Source: Candidatus Hodarchaeota archaeon
GTDB taxonomy: Archaea > Asgardarchaeota > Heimdallarchaeia > Hodarchaeales > Hodarchaeaceae
Assembly (NCBI GenBank): GCA_016840035.1
Contig: JAEOTC010000121.1
Span: 33,962 to 97,961 of the forward strand
Length of the DNA: 64,000 nt
Direction of reading: 5' to 3'
The position numbers and the translations under genes are program-made. Numbering within the stretch: the stretch's first letter is position 1; the number at the start of each line of letters is the position of its first letter. Of this stretch, positions 8,241 through 62,632 are shown piece by piece. Under the pieces are notes generated by a model. It was given only the letters and a program-made list of their open reading frames with translations. It did no database searches and had not been told where the DNA came from.

Positions 8241-8332
8241 GAATAATTTTCAACTATTCTGAAAGATCTGAGAAGTTAAACCTTCGTTTTTTATAAAAAA
8301 AGATTTTGAATTGACTTATAGTCAAAACAAAT

Positions 8333-11006: not shown

Positions 11007-11337
11007 GATTAGAAATAGAAATAAAAACAATAATCTGTTTAAATTGAATAAAAATTATGCTAGAATCAATATCTAAAATTTATCTGTTTAGTTACAATTT
11101 TTCAAAGTCCGAATTTAAAGACTGTTGGTTTAGGTAATTTGGTTTGAAAAAGAACCATTTCAGGCCAGTTCTTCTTCTATATATGTTTTATATTGAAAAT
11201 AAGATTGAAAAACCTAGTAGAACGCAAACAATGAATTCTTCTTTCAGAAAATTACTCGAATTAACCTCAATGATATTTGTAAATAGTTTTAATGTATGAT
11301 AAAGATTGAAAGTTCGGTAACACTCCTAGGTGTTTGA

Positions 11338-27850: not shown

Positions 27851-27877
27851 TATAAAGTGTATAATCGATGTGTAGGT

Positions 27878-28567: not shown

Positions 28568-29584
28568 CTATTTCTTTTTCTTTCTTGAAAGTACAGTAAC
28601 CATTGCTAGTAGTCCTAAACCAAGTGAGATAATGGGGAATTCATATCCAGAAATTTCTTTTTCATCCGTAAAGGTAATTACAAATGGTTTTGCTGATTCA
28701 TTTCCGATTATTGGATCATCAAAGGCGGGAGAGAATAGATGAGTATCTACTGTTTTATTAAATAATCCATAATCTCTATTATCCCAGTGAAGGTGTGCAA
28801 ATACAGCCAATTCTGAAGGAAGGGTTCCTGCTTCTTTATTTGACAAGACATACTCATTGATATCTACATATAGATCAGTATTGACTCCTTGTTTCAATGG
28901 AATATGTCGTCTTCCAACCATTGGGCCTAAACCACTGTCGTTGATATGAATTACAAGCCATGCAGGTCCAGGAACAATGACTTGATCAATGAAAACTTTA
29001 GCGTTTGTTGTGTTCACATCTTGATCACTTACGATTATTGTGGTAGAAAAGGTCTCTGTGCTCGAAAATTGTTCTACGGCCTCTACACTATTTTGATCCT
29101 CCAGAATGAGGTCCGCTCCGTCAGGCTCAAACATCATATTCATATTCGTATCATTATAAAGTTTGGCGACTAGCTGAGTAGTTCTCCCCATTAGGGGTAA
29201 AGTTATTCTGACATAAAGGGTGTGGTTAACTCCTGAATCGGAACTGGTGAGGATTTTTGGAGATATCTGGGTATGATTATGACTCATCCCCACATCCTCC
29301 ATCGTTGAACTATATCCAAGTAAATCGCTAGTTGAATTATAAATTGCTACAAAACCCATATGATGGACATTTACTCTTACTACTACCTGATCATCAACTA
29401 TAGGTTGATCTTTTACTATAAAATCAAACCCAACATACTCTGTTACAGTTTTTGAAATAGTTATCGTACTTGAATTTTGATTTATCGAAAATAAAATCAT
29501 TACAAATAGAATTAAAGATAAGTACTTACTGTGTCTCATAAATACCGCCAATTTACCTTTTATGTATCTAACTAATAAAATCAA
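28568..29584 (-). CDS. secreted surface protein with C-terminal TM anchor and KKKK tail
   Basis: Signal peptide, about 280-aa β-rich ectodomain with NxS/T sequons, then C-terminal ...EFPIISLGLGLLAMVTVLSRKKKK. Confidence 0.55.
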   Translation of the reverse strand: MILLVRYIKGKLAVFMRHSKYLSLILFVMILFSINQNSSTITISKTVTEYVGFDFIVKDQPIVDDQVVVRVNVHHMGFVAIYNSTSDLLGYSSTMEDVGMSHNHTQISPKILTSSDSGVNHTLYVRITLPLMGRTTQLVAKLYNDTNMNMMFEPDGADLILEDQNSVEAVEQFSSTETFSTTIIVSDQDVNTTNAKVFIDQVIVPGPAWLVIHINDSGLGPMVGRRHIPLKQGVNTDLYVDINEYVLSNKEAGTLPSELAVFAHLHWDNRDYGLFNKTVDTHLFSPAFDDPIIGNESAKPFVITFTDEKEISGYEFPIISLGLGLLAMVTVLSRKKKK

Positions 29585-47205: not shown

Positions 47206-47206
47206 A

Positions 47207-48994
47207 ATGTCGTTCAGTAGTGCACAAAAGAGTGATTATGACCAAGATTATTCTATTGGTGATATTCTATCTCGTTTATGGGCATTTGCAGTTACTGAAA
47301 AGATGAGATTACTTCTTGTACTTGCACTTTTTATGTTAAATACAGTAATTAGTATTATTGTACCCTTATTTCTCAGAGAAGCGATCAATGAGCTGAACAA
47401 GGGAGAAACGAATTTTGAATATGTCCAATTACTAGGATGGGGGAATTTAATTGGTACTATTACTCTGTGGATAGCATTCTATCTGATTATTCGGTCAGAA
47501 TGGGCAATTATCGCCAAAACGGTAACTACACTGAGGTTACGTATGTTCATTCAACTCCAAGCGCATGACTTATCATTTTATGACAAAAGTAAGACAGGTC
47601 GTATCATGAGTCGTGTCGTGAATGATGCCTGGGAACTTGGCAATTTTATGCTTATTTTCGTAGAACTATTGGCAAATCTCATTACTATTGTAGGAATGAT
47701 TGGAATTCTATTTTATATTCATTCTGTTTTGACTTTAACTTTATTCATGATTGCTCCGATAATATTTGCCGCTACTATTGGATTAGGCTTTTTATTAATG
47801 CGGTTTAATCGTGTTTGTAGACGAACTGTTGGAGCTGTGAATGGAGCGACTCAGGAAAGTATTGCAGGAATAATGGTTACAAAGAGCTTTGCTCGTGAGG
47901 CTCAAAATATTGAAGAATTTATGGAATTGAACAATGATAACTTACGTGCAAACATCAAACGTTCCCTCGTATTCTCCACCATGTTCCCAATCCTAGAATT
48001 TGTCTCTACATTAATTTATTTCTTGATTATCACAGCGGGGGGTGGGTATGTCATAAAAAATTCCATTACTTTGGGAGACTTATGGTTATTCTATAGCTAT
48101 TCCCTTCTCTTGATTCAACCGTTGATAAGCTTTTCACAACAAATTGCTCAATTCCAAATAGGCCGAGCTGCCGCAGAACGAATTTTTTCTTTGATTGAAG
48201 TTCCGAGTGAAATGAAATGGGGGAATATTATCCCAGGAGCTGACGTTAAAGGACATATTGAATTTAAGGATGTAACTTTTGGTTATTCAAAGGATGAGCC
48301 CCCTTTATTCTCACATTTAAATATAACAATTCCTGAAGGACAAAATATCGCCTTAGTTGGACATACTGGATCAGGAAAAACCTCCTTTATATCCTTACTA
48401 GCACGTTTTTATGAGTTTCAAGCAGGCGATATATATTTAGATGGTTATTCAATAAAAGCATATGATATCGACGCTTATCGTAGTACGCTAGGTATCGTAC
48501 TACAGGATCCATTTTTATTTAGTGGATCGATTGAGGAAAACATTAGGTATGGATCTCACAAGGAAATTGATGCAGAAACACTTCAATCAGCAATCATGTC
48601 AACTCACGTTATAGATTTTGTAGAGTTTTTACCTGAAGGATTACAAACTGATGTTGGTGAAAGAGGAGCAAAAGTCTCCCTAGGTCAAAGACAGCTAATT
48701 TCGTTTGCTCGTGCCTTAGTGGCTGACCCTAAAATCTTAATTCTTGACGAGGCTACTGCCTCAGTGGATGCTTATACAGAAAGCTTAATTCAGGATGGTA
48801 TTGACAATCTATTCGAGGGTAGAACGAGTATTGTAGTTGCACATAGACTTTCGACAATAATTTCCGCCGATCGAATTTTAGTTTTTAATCAGGGTGAGAT
48901 TATTGGTGATGGTACTCATGAAGAGCTAATGGCAAATAATGACGTGTATCGCGATTTATACTCTCGGTATTACGAGTTTCAGGGGAGAGTATGA
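47207..48994 (+). CDS. ABC exporter, fused permease-ATPase (second half)
   Basis: Six TM helices, then GHTGSGKTS, degenerate signature VSLGQRQLIS, and ILILDEATASVD. Starts 2 nt after the upstream stop. Confidence 0.85.
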   Translation: MSFSSAQKSDYDQDYSIGDILSRLWAFAVTEKMRLLLVLALFMLNTVISIIVPLFLREAINELNKGETNFEYVQLLGWGNLIGTITLWIAFYLIIRSEWAIIAKTVTTLRLRMFIQLQAHDLSFYDKSKTGRIMSRVVNDAWELGNFMLIFVELLANLITIVGMIGILFYIHSVLTLTLFMIAPIIFAATIGLGFLLMRFNRVCRRTVGAVNGATQESIAGIMVTKSFAREAQNIEEFMELNNDNLRANIKRSLVFSTMFPILEFVSTLIYFLIITAGGGYVIKNSITLGDLWLFYSYSLLLIQPLISFSQQIAQFQIGRAAAERIFSLIEVPSEMKWGNIIPGADVKGHIEFKDVTFGYSKDEPPLFSHLNITIPEGQNIALVGHTGSGKTSFISLLARFYEFQAGDIYLDGYSIKAYDIDAYRSTLGIVLQDPFLFSGSIEENIRYGSHKEIDAETLQSAIMSTHVIDFVEFLPEGLQTDVGERGAKVSLGQRQLISFARALVADPKILILDEATASVDAYTESLIQDGIDNLFEGRTSIVVAHRLSTIISADRILVFNQGEIIGDGTHEELMANNDVYRDLYSRYYEFQGRV

Positions 48995-49959
48995 AGTTCT
49001 TTGAGGATAATGACTTTTTTCTTAAAGTCAGATCTATTGGTCCTTATTTATCGTTACTCAGTGCTGCAGTATTATGGGGAACTACCTATCCGATAGTTAA
49101 AATAGGTTTGTCTGTTCTCTCACCACCCCTTCCTCCTCTAGGCTATTTGTTTCTGCGGTTTACAGTTGCTTTACTTGTACTGATTCCTATTTTACCGATG
49201 ATAACTTCATTAGATAACATCAAGTCTCTATTATCGAATAATCTTATAATTTTACTAGGAATTGTAAATGGAGGGTCGTACATATTACAATTCTTAGGCC
49301 AAAAAGGGACAACTGCTGGAATGGCAACCTTGATGATTAATACATACTTGATCTCGACCCCGATTTTAGCAAGCTTATACTTGAACTTGAAAATAACACG
49401 TAAATTAAGAATTTCAATCTTTCTGGGAATTTTAGGAGTAACAATTTCAGCCCTTAGTGTTATTGCTGCTGATGTCCCTCCTGGAAATATCCCATATTTT
49501 CTGATAAACACGACTGTTGTTTTATTTTCTGGTCTGATTTGGGGTGGCTATTCCGTTATTTCAAATGAGTTCTTTCGTGTAACCAGAAAACGTCCATTAG
49601 AAACTTCATTCCATCCAATCACAGTATTTTTTGTGTCAAACGCGTATTCTGTAATTTTAATAGGTGTAAGCATGCTTATACTCCAACAAACTCCCGATTT
49701 TCTCAATTTATCACTCAAAGGATGGACTTCAATTCTTTATCTTGGGATTGCTTGTACTTCAACAACGTATATCCTATATATCTACGCATCTAAATCCGTA
49801 TCTCCTGCCGTTCTTAATGTGATCTTGTTATTAAACGTAATTATTGGACTAATCCTATCCAGACTACTATTAGGGGACAATTTTTCAGTTTTTATGATAC
49901 TTGGTAGCATAATAATTCTTCTAGCAATCTACTTGGCAAGTGGAACAGAAAAATCGTAA
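48991..49959 (+). CDS. EamA/DMT-superfamily transporter (10 TM)
   Basis: Two 5-helix repeats. ATGA overlap with the upstream gene. Confidence 0.75.
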   Translation: MKFFEDNDFFLKVRSIGPYLSLLSAAVLWGTTYPIVKIGLSVLSPPLPPLGYLFLRFTVALLVLIPILPMITSLDNIKSLLSNNLIILLGIVNGGSYILQFLGQKGTTAGMATLMINTYLISTPILASLYLNLKITRKLRISIFLGILGVTISALSVIAADVPPGNIPYFLINTTVVLFSGLIWGGYSVISNEFFRVTRKRPLETSFHPITVFFVSNAYSVILIGVSMLILQQTPDFLNLSLKGWTSILYLGIACTSTTYILYIYASKSVSPAVLNVILLLNVIIGLILSRLLLGDNFSVFMILGSIIILLAIYLASGTEKS

Positions 49960-50389: not shown

Positions 50390-52339
50390 TCAATAATCCC
50401 AGAAATACTTTCGATAGAACTCTTCAATTTTCTCAGGTCCTGGGATTTTCATATTATCCCAGACATAGATAATTTCTTCCAGTTCTTTTTCGCAGGTTTG
50501 TCCTTTGAATAATTTTTTTAGGAAAGCACCACGTTCTTTGATGTCACGTTTAACGAAGGCAAGGTATTCTTTTTCACTATAGTAGCGAAGACGGTTAAAC
50601 ATCCGACCAAATCGTTTCATTTCCCACTTATTTTCAAGTTCACTCGGTTGTGGTAACATGATTCGTTCTCCAAAGATAGGATGGGGTAACCAACTCTCAA
50701 TTTTCCGATGTTCGGCTAAATCGAGAAGTTTCTTGGAATGTGGGACACGAATTTTCTTCCCTTGGCCTTGGTAAACTATCTCGCCTAGTTCGTTTCGTAG
50801 AATTTTTCCTGTATTCCGGTCAATCTTGGGAATAAAATCCCCATTTTCATCAGTTAGTCGAATTTGATTACCGTTCAGGTCGTGTTCACCAATTGCTCCC
50901 GTATTAATAACAATAAAAGCTAGCTTTCCATCGGGACCTAGACCCAAATCTCTATACATTTCCCATTTTAATAGTGCTTGATGACAATGCTCTCGTGCCA
51001 TAAAATCAGTAGCAGAGTAACTACGCACGCGTGTACCTGGTTTTTGAGCCGCAATGGCTGAAGTAATAATTGATTCGACCCCACTGTCTAGTGCCACTGC
51101 AACAATAGGATCAACAACTCGAAACATTGGATGCATATAGTCAAATCGTTTCATAGAAAGAACAACGGTTTTCAAATAGCGTGGTTCTTTACTCTTTCCC
51201 CAGTCAGGATTTAATTCTGAAAATAAGAAGATAAAGCGTCCATTGGTGGTGCCAGAACTATGATATCGAGTACATAATAGGGAACCAGGTTCCTTTCCTT
51301 CATCCGTTACAGGAATTTTTACTGTATAACCATTGATTTTTTTTAGTTTATAGCTCACATTTTCACAATCTATGTTCATGGCTAGGACAACGGGATGTTC
51401 TCCATTCTCATCAACTTCTTTAGATTTCATTAGACCTGGCCATTCAGGGCATAAAGGACCAAGGTTTTGTGATTTTGCAAAAGAACCCGCTTCTAATCCA
51501 ATTAATTGGACTTTTTCGATTTTATTGGTTTCAGGGTTTCGAATGATCTTCCCGATGCACGCATCATCTTGTTCAAGTTCTGGTCCGACCGTTAATGTAG
51601 TTTTCCCAGTACCAGATAGGCCTTTAAGAACTCTATCTGATGTCATTCCTGCATGATACGAAATAAAACCATCTGATTCCGCTTTATTCCAAACCATGGT
51701 TAGGTGAGGTTTCTTATACGCACCACCAAAATAATCTACTCGTAGACTGATGACCCGACGTTTATTTTGATCCATTTCCGTAAAATCATATAAGGTAATT
51801 GGCTCATTCGGATCAAAGTTTGGCCAAAACTCTCGAATTTCGTTTACATATCGTAATGGCAATCGTTCTTGGACAATAAAGTTCCAACAATCGATATTTT
51901 GGTTTTCTTTTGGTGGAAATACCATTAATTTCCCAAACCAGCCGATATAAGCGGAATGGGGGTTCTTTACACTAATTGCTACTCGAAGGCCAATTTCGTA
52001 TCCATGTTCTCCTTGAATTCCCTCCTGAACAATTATGGGTACTTTTTCCTCTCTAAGGTATCTAAGGACAACATCATATAATTTTTTCCCTCTTTCTCTA
52101 TCAAAAGCTCTTTGTCCCTGTCCTAAACGGTATCCTTCTGGTACCATGTAGTAGGCCCGATCAGGACGTCTTCCAGGTTGAGTAGATCCGAAAAGATATT
52201 GATGGTCTTTAGTATGAACATAATATCTTCGTAAAAAGATCCTAAACCAATCATGGTCAGGATTCTTAACAATCAGACTGTCTTTTGAAATCTGACAATC
52301 GTAACCAATATCGATAATGGCCTCAGTCACATCTTCCAT
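50390..52339 (-). CDS. phosphoenolpyruvate carboxykinase (ATP)-like protein, divergent and enlarged
   Basis: Kinase-1a motif GLSGTGKTTL as in PckA. Surrounding YFGGAYKK / YHAGMT align loosely to PckA. 649 aa against about 540. Confidence 0.5.
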   Translation of the reverse strand: MEDVTEAIIDIGYDCQISKDSLIVKNPDHDWFRIFLRRYYVHTKDHQYLFGSTQPGRRPDRAYYMVPEGYRLGQGQRAFDRERGKKLYDVVLRYLREEKVPIIVQEGIQGEHGYEIGLRVAISVKNPHSAYIGWFGKLMVFPPKENQNIDCWNFIVQERLPLRYVNEIREFWPNFDPNEPITLYDFTEMDQNKRRVISLRVDYFGGAYKKPHLTMVWNKAESDGFISYHAGMTSDRVLKGLSGTGKTTLTVGPELEQDDACIGKIIRNPETNKIEKVQLIGLEAGSFAKSQNLGPLCPEWPGLMKSKEVDENGEHPVVLAMNIDCENVSYKLKKINGYTVKIPVTDEGKEPGSLLCTRYHSSGTTNGRFIFLFSELNPDWGKSKEPRYLKTVVLSMKRFDYMHPMFRVVDPIVAVALDSGVESIITSAIAAQKPGTRVRSYSATDFMAREHCHQALLKWEMYRDLGLGPDGKLAFIVINTGAIGEHDLNGNQIRLTDENGDFIPKIDRNTGKILRNELGEIVYQGQGKKIRVPHSKKLLDLAEHRKIESWLPHPIFGERIMLPQPSELENKWEMKRFGRMFNRLRYYSEKEYLAFVKRDIKERGAFLKKLFKGQTCEKELEEIIYVWDNMKIPGPEKIEEFYRKYFWDY

Positions 52340-52629
52340 CTCTAATGGGTGAGTAATATACTATGTCAATTAATTTCGAATTGACTGTATGGAGTCGGCG
52401 ATTTTATTGGGTTTTTTATTTCTATTGTAATAAATTACAGCAAATTCAGCTTCAAATTGGAAATATATATCAGCAGGAAGATCTTTGGATAATAACATAG
52501 GTTATATCAGTAATACTCAATTACAGATATGGTACTTGATAATTATATAATCCGCTCAAGAGATCATTATAAGTGAGAGGAAAAGGGTCAAACATACCTG
52601 AGGAAGAATACATCGTGTCACGAGCAAAA

Positions 52630-53241
52630 ATGGACTTTGCTGAGGGAGTATTCCGTACAAATTTCAAGGTATGTGTGATTGGTGATGGAGGAGTAGGAAA
52701 AACCGCCCTTATCCAGCATTTATTGGGGAAAGAATTTTCCAGTAATTATTTACTGACCATTGGAACTGACATTTCCACCTTTCAGCTGGAACACAATGGT
52801 AAAATACTGAGTCTCCAGCTATGGGATCTTGCGGGACAATCACGGTTTGATGTCATTCGGAATATGTATTTTAGCGGTGCACGTGCCGGCGTACTTGTAT
52901 TTGATCTTACAAGACAAAATTCGTTACAATCATTGTCAAAATGGAAGGATGAGATTTTTACATACTCTGACAGAAAAATTCCAATCCTTCTTCTCGGAAA
53001 TAAATCTGACCTTAAAGACTCTCATTTTCCCTTTCTTGAAATGGTTGAAGGATTAAAAAACGAAATCGAACAGGAATACAATATAGTTTATGAAAATAAC
53101 CAGATCACCGTTCCATTTTTTCCCACTTCAGCAAAAACTGGTGAAAACGTTATCGAAGCATTTGAAGCTTTAGGGCAGGAACTACTTACTTACCAAAAGC
53201 AATTTACAATACTACAGAAGAAATCTCAAGAAGATTCGTAA
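52630..53241 (+). CDS. Rab/Ras-like small GTPase
   Basis: G1 GDGGVGKT, Rab-like switch I YLLTIGTDI, G3 WDLAGQ, G4 GNKSDL, G5 TSAKTGENV.EAF. GTG at 52573 gives a 19-aa longer form. No C-terminal prenylation Cys. Confidence 0.85.
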   Translation: MDFAEGVFRTNFKVCVIGDGGVGKTALIQHLLGKEFSSNYLLTIGTDISTFQLEHNGKILSLQLWDLAGQSRFDVIRNMYFSGARAGVLVFDLTRQNSLQSLSKWKDEIFTYSDRKIPILLLGNKSDLKDSHFPFLEMVEGLKNEIEQEYNIVYENNQITVPFFPTSAKTGENVIEAFEALGQELLTYQKQFTILQKKSQEDS

Positions 53242-54100: not shown

Positions 54101-55012
54101 TTATTTATTAATTTCTAATGAATAGAGGGAATAATTTTCAGAAATTGAGGGTTCAAACTTTAATAGTGTATTAGCAATCGTACTGCCTTCATCGGTACTT
54201 AGATGTAAAGGATACTTAGACCAACCTGCTTTGATGCATTCTTTGGCAATTTCTGGAAGTAAAAGTGACCATGTATCCTCAAAACCAGGACGAGTCGCCG
54301 TAAATCGTAAAAAAAGATAGGGCTCTTCACTAGAAGGACGATCTAACAATGGAGCACTCGCACTAAGATCCTGTTTTCCATCCGAGACAATTATACAGTG
54401 GCCATCTTTAAGTACTTTATTCTTGAAGTAGTCCTGGAAGAACTCTTCTGTTAGACCTGCTTCATGCAATTCTTTATCAGCTCTACCAAGCTCAATAAGT
54501 GATTCAATATCAATTTCTGTTGCAAGACGAGATGTATAGATCGAGGAAACATCAGAGGTTCGTTTACTGAGTTTTTCAATATCGAAACTATAATCTAAAC
54601 CTTTGACTTTGAGTTTAAAACCCTGTATTGTAAAAAACTCTTTTACTTTAGGCCACTTATGGTTAATCCAGTATTGAATTTCCTTAGGTCTTCGTGATTT
54701 TATATGCGCTAGCATATCCGAGAAGAGTTTATTCTGTATTTCTGGAGGACAATCCGTCGTTGCCCAAGGGTAGCCTAAGTAATAGATAGTAGTTGAGACT
54801 TGAGAAGCCTGAATATAAGCTAAGGGTTTATTATCTGCAGTAAAAGCATAACGTATCAAGCGAGGATCTTTTGAATTTTTGAGGATTTTTTTTTCGATAT
54901 CTTCTGCGCTAACATTGCTCCCAGTATTACTGTTAAATAAATCAGCTTGAATTTTTTCAAAACCTTTTCCTGACTCATAGAACTTATATTCCACTTTTTC
55001 CATACTTATCAC
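54101..55012 (-). CDS. hypothetical protein
   Basis: 303-aa soluble ORF, no recognised motif. Confidence 0.5.
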   Translation of the reverse strand: MISMEKVEYKFYESGKGFEKIQADLFNSNTGSNVSAEDIEKKILKNSKDPRLIRYAFTADNKPLAYIQASQVSTTIYYLGYPWATTDCPPEIQNKLFSDMLAHIKSRRPKEIQYWINHKWPKVKEFFTIQGFKLKVKGLDYSFDIEKLSKRTSDVSSIYTSRLATEIDIESLIELGRADKELHEAGLTEEFFQDYFKNKVLKDGHCIIVSDGKQDLSASAPLLDRPSSEEPYLFLRFTATRPGFEDTWSLLLPEIAKECIKAGWSKYPLHLSTDEGSTIANTLLKFEPSISENYSLYSLEINK

Positions 55013-55117: not shown

Positions 55118-55648
55118 TCACGAAGTTTGAGCTTGAAAACTTACCAACAGCTGATCCAATTCCTCCAACATAATCTTTGTGGCGGATAATAGATTTTCAA
55201 GAGTATCATGAAAACGTTTTGTCTCAGCTCTTTCTCTAAGTTCTTTGCTTAAATTCCCCATTCGTTGTAAAGCACTTGTCATTGGTGAAACGTTATTTCT
55301 GAGTATATTAATGAAAGAAAGAATCATTCCAGAAAGAAGAACAACAGGTGTATTTGCCCGTTTTTCATATTGCCACTCCTTAGTATTTGGAATTTTAGTT
55401 TTAATAATTAGGGGAGGATTATCAGTTATTAACTTAATATTCCGTGAAACGGTTGATACAGAAATTCCTAATTTAGCAGCGATGTCTTTTTGAGTTAGAG
55501 GTTCATTAGAAAGTAATATCGTCATTAAGATACGTCCTGCATAAGGTCCAGCACCCGCACCAGTATCGAGCATTTGTTCGAATAAGGTGGTAAACTCAGA
55601 GATTACTTGGTTCAAGGTCTCCTCATCGGGAACATTTGAGGGCAACAT
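55118..55648 (-). CDS. HTH transcriptional regulator (TrmB/MarR-like)
   Basis: LTQKDIAAKLGISVSTVSRNIKLI is a classic HTH. Divergent from the giant MMPL gene. Confidence 0.55.
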   Translation of the reverse strand: MLPSNVPDEETLNQVISEFTTLFEQMLDTGAGAGPYAGRILMTILLSNEPLTQKDIAAKLGISVSTVSRNIKLITDNPPLIIKTKIPNTKEWQYEKRANTPVVLLSGMILSFINILRNNVSPMTSALQRMGNLSKELRERAETKRFHDTLENLLSATKIMLEELDQLLVSFQAQTS

Positions 55649-55792
55649 AGTTTCAACTTGATCTTCCTAGAATTTTTGCATTTTTTAATGTTTTCCATAA
55701 TTGCATACTATTGAAATATTTATAAAGGAGAAAGCGTTTAGTGCAATCTCGATGTTTATTTGAATTTCTAAATAAAAAACTGAGGGATTGTA

Positions 55793-58700
55793 TTGAGAAA
55801 CCCGTTTGAAATAATTGCAGATATAAATCAATCATATAAGAAATTTACTATTCCATTTGTTCTAATTTTAACCATCATGTTTGTACCTCTTGCTTTAAGA
55901 GGTATAGCAGCAACTAATGCTGATTTTGCAACATTTCTTCCACAAAATTTGGAATCAAGCCATGCTGACCAAATACTTGCCGAAGAGTTCCCAGATCAAT
56001 CAGAATCTAGTATTGTAATCTTACTCCAGAGTAAGAATGAGTCACTGGATATCTATAATGAACAGATTATTTCACTAATTCAGGATCTAGATTCAGGACT
56101 TGAAACTGAGGAAGATATTCCAGAGGTGAATTTGACCTCTTGGGTGTCATTGGAAGATAATGTGCAAGAAATTTTCCAAGAAACAATAATAGATCTCCAA
56201 TTAATGATTGCTGAGAACATGATACCGATATTGAATGATTATCAAGGTAATATCTCCATGATGAAGGAATTACTAGGTGAATTCACCATCTTAGCGAAAT
56301 CCATTGAATTATTTTCCCAGATGTTAGATTTTTACTTATTAACGTATTATGACTTTGCGAGGAGCATCTATTATCTTTCAAATCAGACAAATGCGTATGA
56401 ATCATATTTCCGTTCATCTGATTATAGTCCTCTTTATTCAGTTTGGGACAATACAACAGGAGAACTTAATCAACTTATGGTCCTTCAGGTATATCTGGCT
56501 ACATTCGATGTGATAGACCCACTGCTAATGCCCGATTTTATGATGGATGGATTGCTGAATGATTTAGTTTTAGGTTTTTTTAATCAATCAATGGGAAGTG
56601 TTGTGCCAGCTCCCTATATTCCTGCAGTCAATCAGCTTCTACTCCTTTTAAATAGTACTTGGAGTACGAACTTCGCTATTGAAACTCCAACTAACCAGTC
56701 CATGTATGGAGTTTTGGATTATTCACCAATCCCAACAGTTAATCAACTTCAACAACAATACATGCTTGGCCGATTAGTAAATGTATCGGTCTTAACTTTA
56801 AGTGATTTATTCACAGCAATTATGGCCGATCCTCAATTACAATCAAGTTTAGAATCCCTCCAAGACGTATTGGATTTGTCTGGAGATTTAATTCCAACAG
56901 TAAATAGTTCATTTATGGAAAGTTTGCATGATGCCCCACTTCAATATATGGGGTTATGGTTTGACCTTTCACGAGCAATCTATTATTTAAATAACGCTAC
57001 TGCAGCTTACCAAGATGGATTAAATAGCACTCATCTTGATATTATAAATAATACATGGGCTGGAGCACTGTACGGATTACCTAACCAAGATTATACTGTT
57101 TCAGCCTTAGCCTATACTTCAACAAGTATGCCAATTCCCCCGTCTGGATTCCCTCTCGGGGTAATAATGTCAACCAATTCTACCCTTGCAGACTCTACTA
57201 CTGATGATATAGTGTTTAATATCTTTAATGGTACTGCTTTTCAACAGTGGGCAATTGAGAACCCTGGGGATCTTCCAGGTTACTTCCAATCACAGGAGTA
57301 TCAATCTCTCCTTGTTTTAAGAGATACTTGGGCAACTTTTAGAGGAATATCTTCTCTTATAAATAATCCATTGTTTGGTGATTATGTTGGGATTCCTCCT
57401 GGAACTCCACTTGCAGAATTATCTCAGTTGGGTGTTATGGATCGATTGATGGACATTGCTAACTCTACATTCCAGGTTTATGCGAGTATGCTCTTTAGTA
57501 GTATGAACTTCAGTGAATCTGGAGTACCTCTTTCCTTGAAGATTGCGGAAACGGAATCGCTTAACTCGATAACTGAAGCTATAGGATTGACGATAAAGAA
57601 CGAAACAGAGCTACAGACCTTCGTAACACAGTTATCGGCTGGAATACTCACTCAATATATTGCTGATATTCCTATCAATATTTCAATCCTAACTACGGCA
57701 TTAAACACACAAATTATTCCATTGGCAGTGTTATATCGAGATTCCGGATTCCCAGATCAAGTTCTCCAAGATATTATTGTGAATCTGTTTATAACAATCC
57801 TTCAAAGCACTGATTTAACCTCATTTTTCGATCCCACCATGTTTGGAGAAACTGATCTTGGATCGTATGAGTTCAATATATCACAACTATTAACCTCGAT
57901 CAATTTCACAACACTAGTCGAAAATCTCTACCTTTCAACCATTCCTGGAAGCAATGTTACTACCACACTTATTGCAGCAGGAATCAGTCAAGGATTAATA
58001 TCGCAAATTACTTTAATTATTCCTGAACCAACGATTCACACCCTCCCTAATGCTGTAACTAAATCACTGATTTCTGCGGATAATAAAACCACTTTATTGG
58101 TAATTTCTTTCCCAAACAATGGTGAGGAAGAAAGTTATTCAGATTCTGTGGAAGCAATTCGAACATTGTTGCACCAGGTAGTTGTTGAAAATGATCTTGA
58201 GGATGATCTCGACTATTGGGTAACTGGGGGACTAGCCCAGTTATATGATAGTTCACACTCGATCAATGAGGATATTGAAACAGTGGATATCGTTGCAGTA
58301 ATATTAGTTGTATTACTCCTATCTCTCGTATTTCTAAGCATTATTGCACCAGTTATACCCTTACTGGCTATTGGTATTGCAATCGTTGAAGCTATTGGTT
58401 TCGTGTTTATTATTGTGACATTGGGTAGTCAAGAAATTCCTACATTGATGTTGGCACTCCTCTCTGTTACTATGCTCGGAGCAGGAGTTGATTATTGTCT
58501 GTTTATTTTATGGCGTTACAAGGAAGAACGACAATATGGACGGAACAGATATTTAGCAATCCGAGAAGCCACAATTCATGCAGGTGAATCTGTGGTATCA
58601 TCTGGTTCAACAGTTATGATTGGATTTGGTAGTCTTCTTCTATCAACATTTCCATTACTTAATCAACTCGGTTTAGGACCGATGGTTGGAATTGCGTTTT

Positions 58701-60418
58701 CACTGTTAGCTGCTTTGACGATTATTCCAATTTTTCTACATTTACTTGGAGATAAAGCATTTTTTCCACGTAATTTTGCGAAAGATTACGATAAAAATCG
58801 TGAAAGGATTCGGGCGGAGATTAAAGCCGAGAAAGAAGGCCGTAGGAGCGAGAATAAACCCCGTCGCTTCTCAATTAAATGGATGAGTCACTGGACAGTT
58901 AAACATCCTTGGCCTGTTATTTTAGCCTTCCTCGCAGTCACTGCATTCTTTGGTGTGAAAATGCTTGACATTCGTGTAAGTTACGACACCGCGGATCTAC
59001 TCCCTCTAAATGTGGAGTCCATGGATGGTTTTCAAGCAATGGAAGGTAACTTCCCCAAAGGCCAGCTGTACCCAATTAAGATCGTCTTAAAGTTTGAGGA
59101 TCCGCTTTCTGCCCCAACTGATCCGATGTATGACCTGACAAAGCTACAGCAGATAGAATCTTTTGCACAGGCTATAGAGCAAGAATTCAGATTAACATCA
59201 GGTGGAGAAACATTGGTTAGCCAAATTAATACGGTAACAAGGCCTAATGGAGTACCCATTAATTTCTCTGAATCCCTTGATCCGTTAACATTTGGATTAC
59301 TAACTCAATTTGTTGGTCCTACCACTAACACTACCGTTGTTCTTGATGTGGTTATGGATGTTGACCCAATAGGCGGTGAATCCCTTAGATTTGTTGGTAA
59401 TCTTCGTTTATTCGTGGAGGAATACCAAATCGACAATGAAGGAACCGTTTTTGGGACTCAGGACTTAGAAATAGTCATTGGGGGTACCACTGCACATTTC
59501 AAGGATATGTCAGAAATAATCGAACGCGAAACTCCCATGATCGTTGCTTTTGTATTGATAGGGATCTTTATTGTCTTATATCTGATAACTGGCTCACTTT
59601 TTACACCTATTCGCTTAGAACTGACTATTCTAATGACAGTTATCATCACGCTGGGTGCTAGCCAAATTTTCTTTGTAGAGTTCCTTGGTTATGGAATCTC
59701 ATGGGTAATGCCGATAATGTTATTTGTCTTAATCTTTGGATTAGGAATGGACTATGACATCTTCATTATCACACGAATGCGTGAAGAAGTGGCACTACGA
59801 GGATTATCAGATGAAGATGCAATTTTAGAAGCATTAGATAAAAGTTCAACCATTATCACAGCAGCAGGCCTTATCATGGCTTCTTCATTGGGCTCTCTCT
59901 ACGTAGGTGATTCGGCTATCCTTAAATTATTTGGTTTTGCATTTTTCGTAGGAATTTTATTAGATGCTACTCTTGTAAGGCAGTTACTTGTCCCTGCTAT
60001 CATGGTAGTTGCTAAAAGAGCCAATTGGTGGAATCCAATCAAAGCGCTACAGCGAGTACCTAGTGAAGAAAAACGAGAATGGATCCGTGAAGCTCAACTA
60101 GAGAAACTCGAGCAAGAACATAAACAAAAAGATCTAACTGATAATCAGTTGAAAGAATTCCGAGGAAAGATGAAAAAGTATTGGAAAGAAGTCTCAAAAC
60201 TTGAGAAAATGCGTAAAGAGATGTCAGACGATGAATATCTTAATAATTTGTCAAGAGTTGAGAAATCTATTAGGAATCTACCCCGTAATGTCCGTCAAAC
60301 TTTTATTCTCGATGTTCGAAGATTGATTGGGAAAATTGAGAAGTTACGTGACAAGACTGCAGGGAAGATCTACAATACGATCGAAATCGATAATCTCAAA
60401 TTTAAACTGGAGAAATAG
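55793..60418 (+). CDS. giant MMPL/RND-superfamily membrane protein (1541 aa)
   Basis: N-terminal TM1, then an ~800-aa extracytoplasmic domain and TM cluster 1 with the MMPL motif GAGVDYCLF. A second ~330-aa extracytoplasmic domain precedes TM cluster 2 with GLGMDYDIF, followed by a ~115-aa coiled-coil tail. Apparent TTG start. Confidence 0.8.
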   Translation: MRNPFEIIADINQSYKKFTIPFVLILTIMFVPLALRGIAATNADFATFLPQNLESSHADQILAEEFPDQSESSIVILLQSKNESLDIYNEQIISLIQDLDSGLETEEDIPEVNLTSWVSLEDNVQEIFQETIIDLQLMIAENMIPILNDYQGNISMMKELLGEFTILAKSIELFSQMLDFYLLTYYDFARSIYYLSNQTNAYESYFRSSDYSPLYSVWDNTTGELNQLMVLQVYLATFDVIDPLLMPDFMMDGLLNDLVLGFFNQSMGSVVPAPYIPAVNQLLLLLNSTWSTNFAIETPTNQSMYGVLDYSPIPTVNQLQQQYMLGRLVNVSVLTLSDLFTAIMADPQLQSSLESLQDVLDLSGDLIPTVNSSFMESLHDAPLQYMGLWFDLSRAIYYLNNATAAYQDGLNSTHLDIINNTWAGALYGLPNQDYTVSALAYTSTSMPIPPSGFPLGVIMSTNSTLADSTTDDIVFNIFNGTAFQQWAIENPGDLPGYFQSQEYQSLLVLRDTWATFRGISSLINNPLFGDYVGIPPGTPLAELSQLGVMDRLMDIANSTFQVYASMLFSSMNFSESGVPLSLKIAETESLNSITEAIGLTIKNETELQTFVTQLSAGILTQYIADIPINISILTTALNTQIIPLAVLYRDSGFPDQVLQDIIVNLFITILQSTDLTSFFDPTMFGETDLGSYEFNISQLLTSINFTTLVENLYLSTIPGSNVTTTLIAAGISQGLISQITLIIPEPTIHTLPNAVTKSLISADNKTTLLVISFPNNGEEESYSDSVEAIRTLLHQVVVENDLEDDLDYWVTGGLAQLYDSSHSINEDIETVDIVAVILVVLLLSLVFLSIIAPVIPLLAIGIAIVEAIGFVFIIVTLGSQEIPTLMLALLSVTMLGAGVDYCLFILWRYKEERQYGRNRYLAIREATIHAGESVVSSGSTVMIGFGSLLLSTFPLLNQLGLGPMVGIAFSLLAALTIIPIFLHLLGDKAFFPRNFAKDYDKNRERIRAEIKAEKEGRRSENKPRRFSIKWMSHWTVKHPWPVILAFLAVTAFFGVKMLDIRVSYDTADLLPLNVESMDGFQAMEGNFPKGQLYPIKIVLKFEDPLSAPTDPMYDLTKLQQIESFAQAIEQEFRLTSGGETLVSQINTVTRPNGVPINFSESLDPLTFGLLTQFVGPTTNTTVVLDVVMDVDPIGGESLRFVGNLRLFVEEYQIDNEGTVFGTQDLEIVIGGTTAHFKDMSEIIERETPMIVAFVLIGIFIVLYLITGSLFTPIRLELTILMTVIITLGASQIFFVEFLGYGISWVMPIMLFVLIFGLGMDYDIFIITRMREEVALRGLSDEDAILEALDKSSTIITAAGLIMASSLGSLYVGDSAILKLFGFAFFVGILLDATLVRQLLVPAIMVVAKRANWWNPIKALQRVPSEEKREWIREAQLEKLEQEHKQKDLTDNQLKEFRGKMKKYWKEVSKLEKMRKEMSDDEYLNNLSRVEKSIRNLPRNVRQTFILDVRRLIGKIEKLRDKTAGKIYNTIEIDNLKFKLEK

Positions 60419-60711: not shown

Positions 60712-62217
60712 ATGATGGGATCGAAGATTTCTATACTCCATGTGGATGATGAACCGAGTTTCCTAGATTTATCCCAGAAATTTATGCAATTAATTGGAGA
60801 TGAAGATCTACAAATATATTATTTGTCAGATCCGACGAGGGTTTTTGAAGAGCTGGAGCTCAAAGAGATTGATGTTATAGTAACGGATTATCAGATGCCG
60901 TTAATGGATGGCTTGGAATTATTAGGAAAATTAAGAGAGGCAAACAATGATATTCCGGTTATTTTTTTGACTGGAAAAGGCAGAGAAGAGGTAGCAATTA
61001 GAGCATTAAATTTAGGTGCCAACTATTATATGGAAAAGCGAGGGGATATGAAGACTCTATTTGGTGAACTTCGACATAATATTCATCAAGTAACAAAACA
61101 TAAGCGTATAGAAAGAGCTCTGAAAGAAAGTGAGGAACGATATCGGATCATTTTCGATGAATCACCCATTAGTTTATGGGAGGAAGATTTCTCTGAGGTT
61201 CGAAAGCATTTCGACCAATTGAGGAACAAAGGGATAGAAGATTTACGAGCATTTCTTGATTCAAATCCTGACGAAATTGAAAAAATCTCTAATTTAGTCA
61301 AAATAATAAATGTAAACAATGCCACTATAAAATTGTATAATGCTAAGAATAAAATAGAGTTTTTTGAAGGATTGGCGACTTTCTTTAATGCAGAAGCTCT
61401 GGTGCTATTTAAAGAAGAACTTATTGCACTCTTTAATGGAAAAACTATCTATCAAAGTGAATTTCCTGGGTATAAATTTTCAGGGGAGAAAATTGACGTC
61501 ATTGTTCGATTATCGGTTATTCCTGGGTACGAAAAGACCTTGGAAAGAATAATAGTATCCGTAATCGACATTACAAAATTAAAAATCGTTGAAACTACCT
61601 TAAGACGACAGAAAAAGGAACTCAGCGAATTTGCGCATTTTATTGCTCACGATATTAGTAATTGTTTGGTTACAATTGAGGGTTATGCTTCATTATTGGA
61701 TATGGAGTATGATGAAGCTTCAATAATTAATCGACAAGTTGAATATATGAAGACTTTATTGCAGCGATCACTGACCCTTGCCGACGCAGGGGTGGTTGTT
61801 GAGCTCAAAGAGATGGTTGATCTAAATGATCTTGTACAAAGTGTCGCTAAAACAGTAATTCCAGCTTCTATAGCGTTTACTAATGATATTCTACCAGAAG
61901 TTTTGGGAGATGTTGAAAAACTCTTTCAAGTGTTCAAGAACATGTTTGAGAATGCTGTCATTCATGGAAAACCTCAAAATATTGAAATAAAATTAATAGA
62001 GGATTATGACTTCCTTCATATGCTTGTAATAAATGATGGTGTCCCAATCCCAATCGGTATCCAAGAGAATATCTTTGATTATGGATTTACAACGGAAACT
62101 GGTAATATGGGTCTTGGATTATCCATTGTCAAGAAAATCATTGAGGCTCATGGATGGCACATTTCTATTCACTCCAGTCAAGAGTCAACATATTTTCAAA
62201 TTTCAATTCCAACTTAG
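60712..62217 (+). CDS. hybrid sensor: receiver (REC)-PAS-histidine kinase
   Basis: REC has acidic HVDDEP, phospho-acceptor VIVTDYQMP, and TGKG. PAS-like middle. H-box FAHFIAHDISN, with N and G boxes (NAVIHG, GLGLSIVKK). Confidence 0.85.
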   Translation: MMGSKISILHVDDEPSFLDLSQKFMQLIGDEDLQIYYLSDPTRVFEELELKEIDVIVTDYQMPLMDGLELLGKLREANNDIPVIFLTGKGREEVAIRALNLGANYYMEKRGDMKTLFGELRHNIHQVTKHKRIERALKESEERYRIIFDESPISLWEEDFSEVRKHFDQLRNKGIEDLRAFLDSNPDEIEKISNLVKIINVNNATIKLYNAKNKIEFFEGLATFFNAEALVLFKEELIALFNGKTIYQSEFPGYKFSGEKIDVIVRLSVIPGYEKTLERIIVSVIDITKLKIVETTLRRQKKELSEFAHFIAHDISNCLVTIEGYASLLDMEYDEASIINRQVEYMKTLLQRSLTLADAGVVVELKEMVDLNDLVQSVAKTVIPASIAFTNDILPEVLGDVEKLFQVFKNMFENAVIHGKPQNIEIKLIEDYDFLHMLVINDGVPIPIGIQENIFDYGFTTETGNMGLGLSIVKKIIEAHGWHISIHSSQESTYFQISIPT

Positions 62218-62254: not shown

Positions 62255-62632
62255 TTATAATTCATCGCAGCTTCTACATTTACCGAAGAAGGTCGTTTCG
62301 GCACTATTAATTCTAAAACCTTTATAATCTTTAATTAATTTTAGTGAATAATTAACTAAATCATCAGATTCAAAATCAATAATTTTTGCACAAGTCTTAC
62401 ATATTATATGGTGATGTGGTTCGATTTTTGCTTCAAATCTTGAAACTCCCCTTACATTGACTTCTTTTAAGAACCCTTTATCTGCCAGTACCTTGAGGTT
62501 TTTATAAACTGTGGCCTTAGTTATCCGTGGAAGGGATACTTTCACATTTTCGTAAATTTCCTCAACATTTGGATGATCGAAATTATCTTTGAGGAACTCT
62601 AAAATAGCAGCTCGTTGATTGGTAAGTTTCAT
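62255..62632 (-). CDS. Fur-family regulator (PerR-like)
   Basis: Winged-helix N-terminus and metal sites HHHIICKTC ... CRSC. Divergent from the catalase gene. Confidence 0.85.
   Translation of the reverse strand: MKLTNQRAAILEFLKDNFDHPNVEEIYENVKVSLPRITKATVYKNLKVLADKGFLKEVNVRGVSRFEAKIEPHHHIICKTCAKIIDFESDDLVNYSLKLIKDYKGFRINSAETTFFGKCRSCDEL

Follow-up and report, generated by a model that had tools for sequence, protein, structure and literature searches.

The locus lies in a 64,000-nt stretch of Hodarchaeales DNA (hereafter the window) and consists of a long transporter gene, a divergently encoded regulator gene and a conserved intergenic region between them:

55118..55648, minus strand: winged-HTH regulator gene, 176 aa, borderline MarR-type (Pfam HTH_24, MarR_2 and MarR)
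55695..55728, plus strand: conserved intergenic block (intergenic alignment), 67 nt upstream of the TTG start
55701-55716, plus strand: operator-like dyad TTGCATACTATTGAAA, abutting the TATA-like box
55719-55726, plus strand: TATA-like box TTTATAAA, abutting the dyad
55782..55786, plus strand: GAGGG Shine-Dalgarno-like site (sequence), 7 nt upstream of the TTG start
55793..60418, plus strand: MMPL-family transporter gene, 1541 aa, TTG start, stop codon at 60416-60418 (ORF list and translation)

Translation of the transporter gene is uninterrupted from end to end, in agreement with the single 1541-aa frame, free of stops and frameshifts, described in the initial annotation; position 55118, where that annotation begins, is the end of the regulator gene and not the start of the transporter gene. 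The GAGGG site is invariant in 4 loci, and homologues have ATG at the position of the TTG start codon. Independent assemblies supply eight homologues of 1469-1544 aa at 51-78% identity; overall identities among full-length homologues span 51-79%. In public records, these proteins are labelled only “MMPL family transporter” or hypothetical.

The regulator passes the Pfam thresholds of the MarR families by a hair (27.9 vs 27 bits for MarR_2, 24.7 vs 24.6 for MarR) and that of HTH_24 more comfortably (29.9 vs 21.9), the match being confined to the HTH of ~35 aa. No match to TrmB (PF01978) was found in the Pfam scan; the TrmB half of the former “TrmB/MarR-like” label is unsupported, and the MarR half is borderline. 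The divergent transcription first annotated did hold: in 8 of 9 loci the transporter gene has a divergent regulator gene as its partner, with regulator identities of 26-80% (orthologues in L001, L003, L004, L005, L042, L044 and L045), and locus L002 lacks it. The arrangement of dyad and TATA-like box recurs in distant loci, as a perfect palindrome (TTTTGCA-N6-TGCAAAA) in L044, and the block is unique within the window.

No other neighbour is conserved, and the genes downstream differ in every locus. When related loci were compared, no lipid, glycan, S-layer, substrate, biosynthetic or envelope gene was found to be conserved beside the transporter gene. No MmpS-type Pfam match was detected among the neighbours in the window and six related loci. 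The terms “lipid or glycan exporter” and “surface scaffold”, used in the initial annotation, are speculation. In a close relative, NosD/beta-helix surface proteins are encoded downstream; they are absent as conserved neighbours in the other loci.

Transmembrane core and cytoplasmic tail

The Pfam MMPL profile (PF03176) matches the protein with E 7.8e-95 (318 bits vs a cutoff of 20.5) in two stretches, with significant matches in both halves; the match begins at aa 753, and aa 750-1422 alone score 308 bits. The best relatives of solved structure are MmpL4, MmpL5 and MmpL3 (E 6e-45 to 1e-30). Twelve transmembrane (TM) segments were delimited by hydropathy and alignment to these structures and not by a dedicated topology predictor. 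The following features make up the core and tail:

55844..55912, plus strand: TM1, aa ~18-40 (hydropathy; alignment to a Methanomassiliicoccus MMPL protein over its N-terminus and TM1)
58268..58762, plus strand: TM2-TM6, aa ~826-990 (hydropathy; MmpL4/5/3 alignment)
58478-58504, plus strand: TM4 motif GAGVDYCLF, aa 896-904 (residues invariant in the family)
58763..58909, plus strand: K/R-rich cytoplasmic loop between TM6 and TM7, aa ~991-1039 (composition, hydropathy)
58910..59512, plus strand: TM7 (aa ~1040-1061) and C-terminal porter subdomain PC (aa 1062-1240) (MmpL4 alignment)
59513..60016, plus strand: TM8-TM12, aa ~1241-1408 (hydropathy; MmpL4/5/3 alignment)
59738-59764, plus strand: TM10 motif GLGMDYDIF, aa 1316-1324 (invariant in the family)
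60017..60415, plus strand: K/E/R-rich cytoplasmic tail, aa ~1409-1541 (composition, alignment, heptad tests)

The distribution of charges follows this topology: a short K-rich cytoplasmic N-terminus precedes TM1, the cytoplasmic loop and tail are K/R-rich, and the outward loop has a K+R content of only 2%. The G-x-G-x-D-Y-x-x-F motif occurs twice, as G896AGVDYCLF and as G1316LGMDYDIF, and the Asp-Tyr pairs of the two copies, D900-Y901 and D1320-Y1321, align with the proton-relay DY motifs of MmpL4 and are invariant in 9 family members. Both porter subdomains, PN and PC, have the double beta-alpha-beta layout (by AF2 model for PN and MmpL4 alignment for PC). PC is short (179 aa) and MmpL3-like, and aligns end to end without gaps to a coiled-coil-deleted MmpL4 construct.

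Narrower family profiles are not reached. Scores fell below the whole-protein cutoffs of NCBIfam TIGR00833 (actII MMPL; 300.2 vs 874.7 bits), below that of TIGR00921 (HAE3; 184.9 vs 351.9 bits) and below that of the MmpL3 equivalog (145 vs 1400), and the YhgE/Pip-type family, absent from the NCBIfam results, was discarded as an assignment. In Pfam, the TM core gave a sub-threshold match to ACR_tran (14.8 bits) and none to Patched (PF02460) or the sterol-sensing domain (PF12349), even at E <= 10, and kinship with Patched/NPC1 was rejected on this profile evidence. Altogether, the MmpL architecture of the initial annotation is confirmed by the Pfam match, the 12 TM segments and both motifs: judged by its sequence, the protein is a bona fide MMPL (RND superfamily) transporter for which proton-coupled transport is predicted.

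The tail had been described as a long, K/E-rich coiled coil. Its composition agrees with the description (K 16%, E 12%, R 9%); a long coiled coil is not supported, as prolines are present and the longest a/d-consistent heptad run is 25 aa (aa 1453-1477; 18 ± 11 in shuffled sequences), in a crude test that used neither a COILS-type matrix nor a structure model of the tail. The heptad register shifts along the tail. Conservation is confined to the first ~45 aa, beyond which the sequence diverges fast; no Pfam match was found in the tail.

The first outward loop and its helical insert

The loop between TM1 and TM2 spans ~aa 41-825. Its ~785 aa, measured by hydropathy, are close to the ~800 aa first annotated, and its parts are as follows:

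55913..56152, plus strand: first half of PN (beta-alpha-beta), aa 41-120 (AF2 secondary structure; match to Thermoplasmata PN flank)
56153..58057, plus strand: all-alpha, sequon-rich PN insert, aa 121-755, ~635 aa (AF2; no relatives found outside the MMPL subfamily)
56165..56782, plus strand: repeat module R1, aa ~125-330 (hhalign), with motif YYDFARSIYYLSNQT at aa 185-199 (56345-56389)
56783..57412, plus strand: repeat module R2, aa ~331-540 (hhalign), with motif WFDLSRAIYYLNNAT at aa 389-403 (56957-57001)
57413..58057, plus strand: third helical region, aa 541-755 (helical in AF2)
58058..58267, plus strand: second half of PN (beta-alpha-beta), aa 756-825 (alignment to MmpL4 136-190; AF2)

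An insert of ~630-635 aa interrupts the canonical PN subdomain between its strands beta2 and beta3. In the AF2 model, the order is beta-alpha-beta, helical insert, beta-alpha-beta, with a strand at 33-40, a helix at 50-65 and a strand at 73-77 in the first half, and strands at 726-732 and 766-771 in the second (ectodomain numbering). Residue 760 is aligned with MmpL4 136, and the flanks (aa 11-98 and 742-836) align with the Methanomassiliicoccus protein. Borderline hydropathy at aa 725-743, and at ~660-678 in a relative, raised the question of extra TM segments within the ectodomain. These candidates, being short or polar and separated by the conserved sequons N695 and N704, were discarded. 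The split PN, the tandem repeat and an insertion site pseudo-symmetric to that of the MmpL4/5 coiled coil are all additions to the initial annotation.

R1 and R2 form a tandem repeat of ~204 aa (hhalign probability 98.3%, E 1.4e-14). The region at aa 541-755 was considered as an additional copy and rejected, as hhalign found it dissimilar to both. A motif scan located D-x2-R-x3-Y-L-x-N-x-T in each repeat; relatives carry 2 or 3 copies of the motif, three being found in a 1761-aa protein. Within the insert, conservation and model confidence are both highest in R2 (pLDDT ~90), with H379, W389, D391, R394, Y398, L399, N401, T403, W422 and Y503 invariant family-wide. The AlphaFold check of the ectodomain gave a confident model with an all-helical insert between the PN halves (pLDDT 73.7 and pTM 0.60 overall, 75-92 pLDDT over most of the insert); it was built on a 12-sequence alignment with more distant members, the 9 close homologues alone yielding a pLDDT of 48.

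No Pfam match and no PDB sequence match to the insert were found, and Foldseek against PDB and BFVD returned nothing at E <= 1e-3 (TM-scores <= 0.12). In a search space of 1.84 billion, the insert was found in only 7 protein clusters, all of MMPL proteins, and a metagenome contig scan with one alignment added a single 1.5-kb fragment (L045). A candidate larger relative, P0011 (1888 aa), turned out to be an ordinary MMPL protein, extended at its C-terminus but lacking the PN insert. The insert-bearing transporter was found only in a few Hodarchaeales-type (Asgard) archaea. No description of an MMPL protein with a comparable domain from Asgard archaea, Hodarchaeales or archaea in general emerged from our literature search.

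The insert is under purifying selection, with constraint similar to that of the canonical loops: its dN is 0.19, compared with 0.15-0.18 for the PN flanks and PC, and its dN/dS is ~0.1. These figures bear on the suspicion that the long frame might be an artefact, whether an MMPL gene joined to an unrelated one by an error of assembly or gene model, or filler sequence without function. Split annotations in two relatives (826 + 640 aa in L044; adjacent proteins P0055 and P0056) might be read in that sense; however, the split points differ between those assemblies and look like frameshifts there. At least nine full-length versions from independent assemblies and samples are known, the insert is flanked by both halves of one domain, the dN/dS of ~0.1 holds across the insert, and the AF2 model is confident. 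A fusion of two frames, named in the initial annotation as the result that would overturn it, is ruled out by the eight full-length homologues, and the chance that any form of this artefact explains the gene is negligible.

The protein contains 27 N-x-S/T sequons, 23 of them in the first outward loop (8.9 ± 2.6 expected from shuffles, z = 5.4). Nineteen sequon positions are kept in at least seven of nine members, all in outward loops 1 and 2, where PC contributes two invariant ones (N1157 and N1179), and sequon asparagines are conserved in 7.4 of 9 members vs 4.4 for other asparagines. The only other sequon-enriched ORFs of the window encode a SCO1/SenC protein and a DUF7282 protein, which we take to be extracytoplasmic. 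The earlier count of more than 20 sequons is therefore upheld, and their enrichment and conservation suggest that the outward loop is probably N-glycosylated.

Proposed function and alternatives

We favor, with a probability of roughly 0.55, a protein that acts as an exporter driven by the proton motive force, bears an N-glycosylated helical extension and is under a dedicated divergent repressor. The proton motive force would drive the 12-TM core with its two canonical porter subdomains, and the helical module (tandem ~204-aa repeat plus third region) would project from the cell surface in glycosylated form. We infer outward transport and an amphiphilic class of substrate, which the module may take over or guide from the porter domains; alternatively, the module may dock other surface components. 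Because the insert has no structural analogue by Foldseek, this conduit or docking role is argued only by analogy with the helical coiled coil that cluster-I mycobacterial MmpLs have at the pseudo-symmetric site in PC and require for export. Counting against the favored reading are the lack of conserved substrate, biosynthetic or envelope genes next door, the missing regulator in L002 and the single membrane of Hodarchaeales, which leaves no periplasm-wide gap to be bridged as in mycobacteria. The winged-HTH protein is predicted to bind the conserved dyad beside the TATA box and would repress by promoter occlusion, possibly relieved by the substrate.

The heavy, conserved sequon load and the very acidic, K/R-poor character of the ectodomain, as expected of archaeal surface glycoproteins, admit another explanation: the ectodomain might be mainly a structural surface element (glycocalyx or scaffold, adhesion, protective coat) on an MMPL anchor, with transport secondary or lost; the “surface scaffold” of the initial annotation belongs here. 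The varying number of repeats in relatives (2 or 3 copies) and the NosD/beta-helix genes of the close relative would fit. However, the latter are unconserved in other loci, and conservation within the protein peaks in the TM core (91-93% identity, dN 0.05), which, together with the invariant Asp-Tyr pairs, argues for a working proton-coupled machine. The dedicated regulator and operator-like dyad, reminiscent of the Rv0678-mmpS5L5 efflux-pump locus, suggest inducible rather than constitutive expression. We consider the surface-element explanation improbable.

An inward direction of transport can also be envisaged. The MMPL core might be a scavenging or lipid-transfer device whose ectodomain captures an external hydrophobic molecule, for instance a lipid or isoprenoid supplied by partners or by the environment, and feeds it to the membrane domain, much as the luminal domains of eukaryotic NPC1 capture cholesterol and pass it on. 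The architecture is of the same class (an RND core with a large, sequon-rich loop-1 domain), Leu, Ile and aromatic residues abound in the insert, and its weak top Foldseek matches are membrane-protein helical bundles, a hint of hydrophobic helices; the invariant R2 cluster H379/D391/R394/W389/Y398 could be a binding site. Yet the presence of the D-x2-R-x3-Y-L-x-N-x-T motif in both repeats fits structural helix capping better than a unique ligand site, Pfam detects MMPL (308 bits) and sub-threshold ACR_tran instead of any Patched or sterol-sensing signal, and the characterised MMPL-family proteins that we know of act as exporters. Scavenging seems to us unlikely.

A bolder reading would turn the PN insert into a tower outside the cell, self-contained and glycosylated, along whose hydrophobic path lipids or other amphiphiles would travel from or to the membrane of a single-membrane Asgard archaeon; its reach would be set by the number of repeat copies (2 or 3). 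We regard this as doubtful. If true, archaea would have, built into the transporter itself, an equivalent of the coiled-coil tube of MmpL5 or of the periplasmic adaptors that serve tripartite pumps, made from a previously unseen helical repeat fold of ~200 aa.

Comparison with known pumps

The nearest relatives of the core are uncharacterised Methanomassiliicoccales/Thermoplasmata MMPL proteins of 1007-1110 aa (31-34% identity over aa ~750-1430). Their PN, too, is enlarged (380-480 aa) and has its additional residues at the same site, although their inserts are about half the size of the Hodarchaeales insert. Homology between the inserts was considered and rejected, as BLASTP and hhalign match the canonical flanks alone; the WFDxSRxIYYLxNxT motif was not seen in the one Thermoplasmata-type protein examined in detail (L006). 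The claim that the loop is several times the usual size is correct relative to bacterial MmpLs (~150 aa) and does not extend to these archaeal relatives; since their first loops already reach 380-480 aa, the loop is the extreme of a trend and not a singular jump.

Rv0678 is a MarR-type protein and is divergently encoded. With the cluster-I pumps MmpL4, MmpL5 and MmpL10, the Hodarchaeales protein shares the 12-TM core, including the Asp-Tyr pairs of TM4 and TM10 (E 6e-45), a helical module between the two beta-alpha-beta halves of one porter subdomain, and a pump gene accompanied by a transcriptional regulator, putative here and the repressor Rv0678 in the case of mmpS5L5 (bioRxiv 10.1101/2025.06.24.661325). 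Export depends on the cluster-I module, which is also implicated in oligomerisation (PMC11850643, PMC12501195, PMC12183618). In MmpL4/5, a coiled-coil domain sits in PC as an insert, has a predicted extension of 130 Å and is essential for export (PMC11850643), and MmpS5L5 uses its coiled-coil tube (PMC12501195). The differences lie in site and build. The insert sits in PN (loop 1) instead of PC (loop 2), a mirror-image, pseudo-symmetric position, and consists of ~635 aa of tandem-repeat helical bundles instead of a ~195-aa coiled-coil hairpin, with no sequence or Foldseek similarity between the two. The PC coiled coil is absent: residues 459-719 of MmpL4 are passed over when the full-length proteins are aligned. 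Moreover, the MmpS partner is absent, the archaeal host has only one membrane, and sequons abound in the loop.

MmpL3, the cluster-II trehalose monomycolate exporter, likewise has a short PC without insert and a cytoplasmic tail after TM12, and its TM8-12 align at E ~1e-35; however, its PN is ~150 aa without insert, and the tails are dissimilar. NPC1, Patched and Dispatched share the RND-type 12-TM core and have large N-glycosylated domains in the TM1-2 and TM7-8 loops, whereas here loop 1 alone is enlarged, with an ectodomain fold that is unrelated as far as Foldseek could tell. AcrB-type pumps also extend their exit path by subdomains inserted into porter loops, but they belong to another RND family, their docking domains are small alpha/beta modules that contact TolC, and no outer membrane exists here.

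Among archaea, the host lineage is reported to be the nearest relative of eukaryotes. The family by itself opens no long-standing question. Should the module prove to act as conduit or dock, the known rules by which RND proteins reach beyond the membrane would become broader, and it would offer a handle on how Asgard archaea build or service their cell surface. The regulator-operator pair provides a simple experimental entry, because the ligand of the regulator should point to the substrate.

Altogether, the protein is a known pump type with an unusual extension, and not a new kind of system. Extension of the exit path by inserted domains is known from the AcrB funnel and from the MmpL4/5 coiled coil, the MmpL4 coiled coil occupying the insertion site of the AcrB funnel domain (PMC11850643). 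To these the Hodarchaeales family adds a third solution, an independent one: its insertion lies in the other porter subdomain, builds on helical repeats without detectable relative in sequence or structure, and probably wears a dense glycan coat.

Reading frame, family and membrane topology

The gene under study encodes an MMPL/RND transporter, and its frame is uninterrupted in the window:

55793-60418, + strand: transporter ORF, 1541 aa, TTG start

A GAGGG sequence resembling a ribosome-binding site lies 7 nt 5' of the TTG start and is invariant across four related loci; more distant relatives have ATG at the equivalent codon (MKNPFE...). The GC content (0.35-0.40) is the same as in the remainder of the window, and full-length homologues carry the labels Heimdallarchaeota B3_Heim or Hodarchaeales. 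The initial annotation had described a single long ORF without stop or frameshift, with fusion of two ORFs as the refuting case. The frame does read through over 1541 aa, and the idea that the long ORF is an artefact of assembly or fusion can be considered refuted, with a negligible residual probability.

Two other family members are called in pieces. At L044, a locus with a related transporter gene, the member appears as two adjoining ORFs of 826 and 640 aa (7517-11948). The second case involves proteins P0055 and P0056 (MHA2362641.1 and MHA2362642.1, adjacent accessions), of 535 and 1233 aa, whose sum of about 1768 aa matches the 1761 aa of P0051, a relative with three repeats. Frameshifts or assembly errors probably account for these split calls.

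The transporter matches the Pfam MMPL family in two stretches (E 7.8e-95), and its closest relatives of solved structure are MmpL4, MmpL5 and MmpL3 (E 6e-45 to 1e-30). In the profile search, neither Patched, sterol-sensing nor other RND-family profiles rose above threshold, and the NCBIfam subfamily models actII, HAE3, MmpL3 and HpnN were all far under their cutoffs. Together with the MMPL match, these scores indicate an MMPL protein that does not belong to the curated subfamilies.

Hydropathy places TM1 at aa ~18-40, TM2-6 at ~826-990, TM7 at ~1040-1061 and TM8-12 at ~1241-1408. Charges follow the positive-inside rule: loop 1, the outward loop between TM1 and TM2, contains 0.9% K and 1.1% R, and both residues are abundant in the TM6-7 loop and in the tail. 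TM4 (aa 896-904) and TM10 (aa 1316-1324) each have a G-x-G-x-D-Y-x-x-F motif. Both align with the Asp-Tyr proton-relay motifs of MmpL4 and do not vary among nine family members. One might conceive of the protein as mostly a structural surface glycoprotein that uses an MMPL bundle as its anchor. The TM core and the proton-relay residues are extremely conserved, however, which speaks against this idea; we consider it unlikely.

The cytoplasmic tail (~130 aa, rich in K, E and R) had been annotated as a long coiled coil. A consistent heptad pattern extends over 25 aa at most (aa 1453-1477), and shuffled sequences do equally well; moreover, the register shifts along the tail and is broken by prolines. 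For these reasons the description was not accepted, and the tail is taken to be a charged, probably helical cytoplasmic segment. Its first ~45 residues are conserved (NWWNPIK..LQRVPSEE.R..IR), the remainder diverges fast (35% identity in distant pairs), and a Pfam search of the tail gave no family match.

The helical insert and its sequons

Nothing in the PDB aligns over aa ~120-755. On the C-terminal side, residue 760 pairs with MmpL4 residue 136, and the match to a Methanomassiliicoccus MMPL is confined to aa 11-98 and 742-836. When Thermoplasmata first loops were compared by profile-profile alignment, just the flanks of the N-terminal porter subdomain (PN) matched once more. An AlphaFold2 model of the ectodomain, built on a 12-sequence alignment (mean pLDDT 73.7, pTM 0.60; 75-92 across most of the insert), has, in ectodomain numbering, strand 33-40, helix 50-65 and strand 73-77, then ~620 residues of helices, the first of them 77 residues long, and finally strand 726-732, helix 742-759 and strand 766-771. 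Flank alignments and modelled strands thus place the insert (aa 121-755), in the predicted fold, between beta2 and beta3 of PN.

A 15-residue motif occurs twice in the insert, as YYDFARSIYYLSNQT at aa 185 and, 204 aa further, as WFDLSRAIYYLNNAT at aa 389; in the 1761-aa relative it is present three times, ~200 aa apart. Each motif closes a long helix in the model, with the sequon Asn at the helix C-terminus. Profile-profile alignment relates aa 181-316 to aa 385-539 (probability 98.3%, E 1.4e-14) and neither repeat to the third part of the insert (aa 541-755). Repeat 2 holds a cluster of residues invariant in the most diverse alignment (H379, W389, D391, R394, Y398, L399, N401, T403, W422 and Y503). 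The insert matched no Pfam or PDB sequence, even at E 10. Its dN (0.19) is close to that of the PN flanks and of PC, the C-terminal porter subdomain (0.15-0.18), the TM core having 0.05; its dN/dS is ~0.1, an approximate ratio as dS is saturated. Substitution rates indicate purifying selection on the insert, comparable to that on the canonical loops.

Loop 1 contains 23 sequons against 8.9 ± 2.6 expected by composition (z = 5.4). Elsewhere, N12 is the only one in the TM1/N-terminal cytoplasmic stretch, the tail has one that is unconserved, and the other TM bundles and the cytoplasmic loop have none. Nineteen sequon positions, every one in loop 1 or loop 2 (N1157, N1179), are shared by 7 or more of the nine family members, and loop Asn residues are retained by 7.4 of 9 members within sequons versus 4.4 of 9 outside. 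Among 41 window ORFs of at least 200 aa, a clear excess was otherwise found in only two:

27857-28546, + strand: SCO1/SenC-type protein, z 2.9
28568-29584, - strand: DUF7282 protein, z 4.2

We take both to be extracytoplasmic proteins, and sequon excess may be a marker of surface proteins in this organism. On statistical grounds, the pattern supports N-glycosylation and outward topology of loop 1, as the initial annotation had proposed for a sequon-rich ectodomain.

Distribution among archaeal MMPL proteins

When 1.84 billion cluster representatives were scanned exhaustively with HMMER, seven clusters matched the insert. Six are MMPL proteins whose insert comes before the first TM bundle. P0055, the seventh, is without Pfam match and looks like the N-terminal piece of a split MMPL gene. 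Insert-bearing proteins have Hodarchaeales source labels, plus one 'Thorarchaeota' and one 'Odinarchaeota' MAG, and the full-length form is found in only 2 of 185,579 species-representative genomes (Hodarchaeota YT2_065 and Heimdallarchaeota B3_Heim).

By core sequence, the nearest relatives (31-34% identity) come from Methanomassiliicoccales/Thermoplasmata; these MMPLs are 1007-1110 aa long and have first loops of 380-480 aa; in other Asgard MMPLs this loop is ~220 aa or less. The inserts in the Methanomassiliicoccales/Thermoplasmata loci (L006-L028) share the beta2/beta3 site, and homology to the Hodarchaeales insert is not detectable. Since the loops of these relatives are already long at the same site, the transporter represents the extreme of an archaeal tendency to expand PN; judging from the sequences, the insert is of independent origin or has diverged untraceably. 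The genes flanking the MMPL gene of L006 resemble leucyl-tRNA synthetase and a UbiX-like prenyltransferase (translations judged by eye), and in L007-L009 the same positions are taken by ORFs comparable in size and orientation.

Source records name the relatives just 'MMPL family transporter' or 'hypothetical protein', and a literature search found no paper describing an MMPL with such a PN insertion. MMPL transporters are themselves already known; this one has a PN insertion of a ~200-aa helical repeat that lacks detectable relatives.

Regulation, proposed role and known MMPL systems

The initial annotation had also pointed to an adjacent TrmB/MarR-like regulator:

55118-55648, - strand: winged-helix (wHTH) regulator ORF, 176 aa, divergent from the transporter

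A divergent wHTH protein is indeed present and barely attains the MarR thresholds, but the profile search gave no TrmB match. Seven related loci (L001, L003, L004, L005, L042, L044 and L045) have an orthologue (26-80% identity) placed divergently in the same way, L002 being the sole locus examined that lacks one. Apart from the regulator, no neighbour is conserved across related loci.

The intergenic block 55695-55728 is near-invariant in the alignment of close relatives. It consists of a dyad-like element, TTGCATACTATTGAAA, abutting a TATA-like box, TTTATAAA, 67 nt 5' of the start codon. The dyad pattern (TTGCA-N5/6-TTGAA/TGCAA) is found in the intergenic regions of the window, L044, L003, L042 and L045, with a perfect palindrome (TTTTGCA-N6-TGCAAAA) in L044, and its arrangement with the TATA box persists over 26% to 80% regulator identity. 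Archaeal repressors can act by blocking TBP/TFB access at an operator abutting the TATA box. The position of the predicted operator suggests that the regulator binds the dyad and represses in this manner.

The surroundings of the two genes include:

45346-49959, + strand: two tandem ABC exporters (fused ABC_membrane + ABC_tran, 619 and 595 aa), then an EamA-family transporter
50390-52339, - strand: PEPCK-like ORF, 649 aa (PEPCK_ATP E 6.5e-8, weak and partial, aa 74-293)
52573-53241, + strand: Ras/Roc/Arf-family small GTPase, 222 aa (Ras E 1.6e-40)
54101-55012, - strand: ORF of 303 aa adjoining the regulator, without Pfam or NCBIfam match
60712-62217, + strand: hybrid receiver-PAS-histidine kinase, downstream of the transporter
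62255-62632, - strand: Fur/PerR-family regulator, also downstream

Ras-family small GTPases are a signature of Asgard archaea; this one is syntenic in the close relatives L001 and L004, and L044 also has a Ras/Roc GTPase near its family member. The PEPCK-like ORF, atypically long for such a protein, is kept in L001 and L004, the only loci with counterparts of the 303-aa ORF (300-303 aa), which is absent from distant loci. At least one ABC exporter gene lies at the edge of L001, the closest relative's locus, and distant loci have none near the transporter. The kinase and Fur/PerR genes are not kept next to the transporter at other loci; in L001 their place is taken by NosD/beta-helix surface proteins.

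Our best reading, to which we assign a probability of about 0.55, is the following: a working proton-driven MMPL core would export an amphiphile, its glycosylated helical PN insert would receive, guide or dock material leaving the porter cleft, and a dedicated repressor would govern the system. An inward or scavenging device of the NPC1 kind seems unlikely to us. Under the export reading, the role of the insert is proposed because of its analogy with the coiled-coil domain found in MmpL4/5, which is essential for export and is believed to reach across the periplasm (PMC11850643, PMC12501195). Altogether, what the initial annotation observed is real and largely as described, and its interpretation, which included a surface scaffold, is partly right. 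The transporter is structurally curious and comes from an interesting lineage; it does not alone resolve an open question.

Homology between the protein's two halves is plain to see (LPxNxES...FP, followed by beta1, alpha, beta2). In loop 2, the site after beta2 reads VSQINTVTRPNG, and full-length MmpL4 has its coiled-coil domain there; alignment of full-length MmpL4 to the transporter leaves out MmpL4 residues 459-719, and the published bounds of the domain are S491-Y685 (PMC11850643). Hence, MmpL4 has its coiled coil in PC, whereas the Hodarchaeales transporter has its insert at the pseudo-symmetric site of PN. The short PC of the transporter (179 aa) is a likeness to MmpL3. A regulatory parallel is offered by Rv0678, a MarR-type protein in divergent position. 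Rv0678 has a repressor role for mmpS5-mmpL5 (bioRxiv 10.1101/2025.06.24.661325), and the likeness lies in a repressor that controls an MMPL pump, as we infer for the Hodarchaeales regulator.
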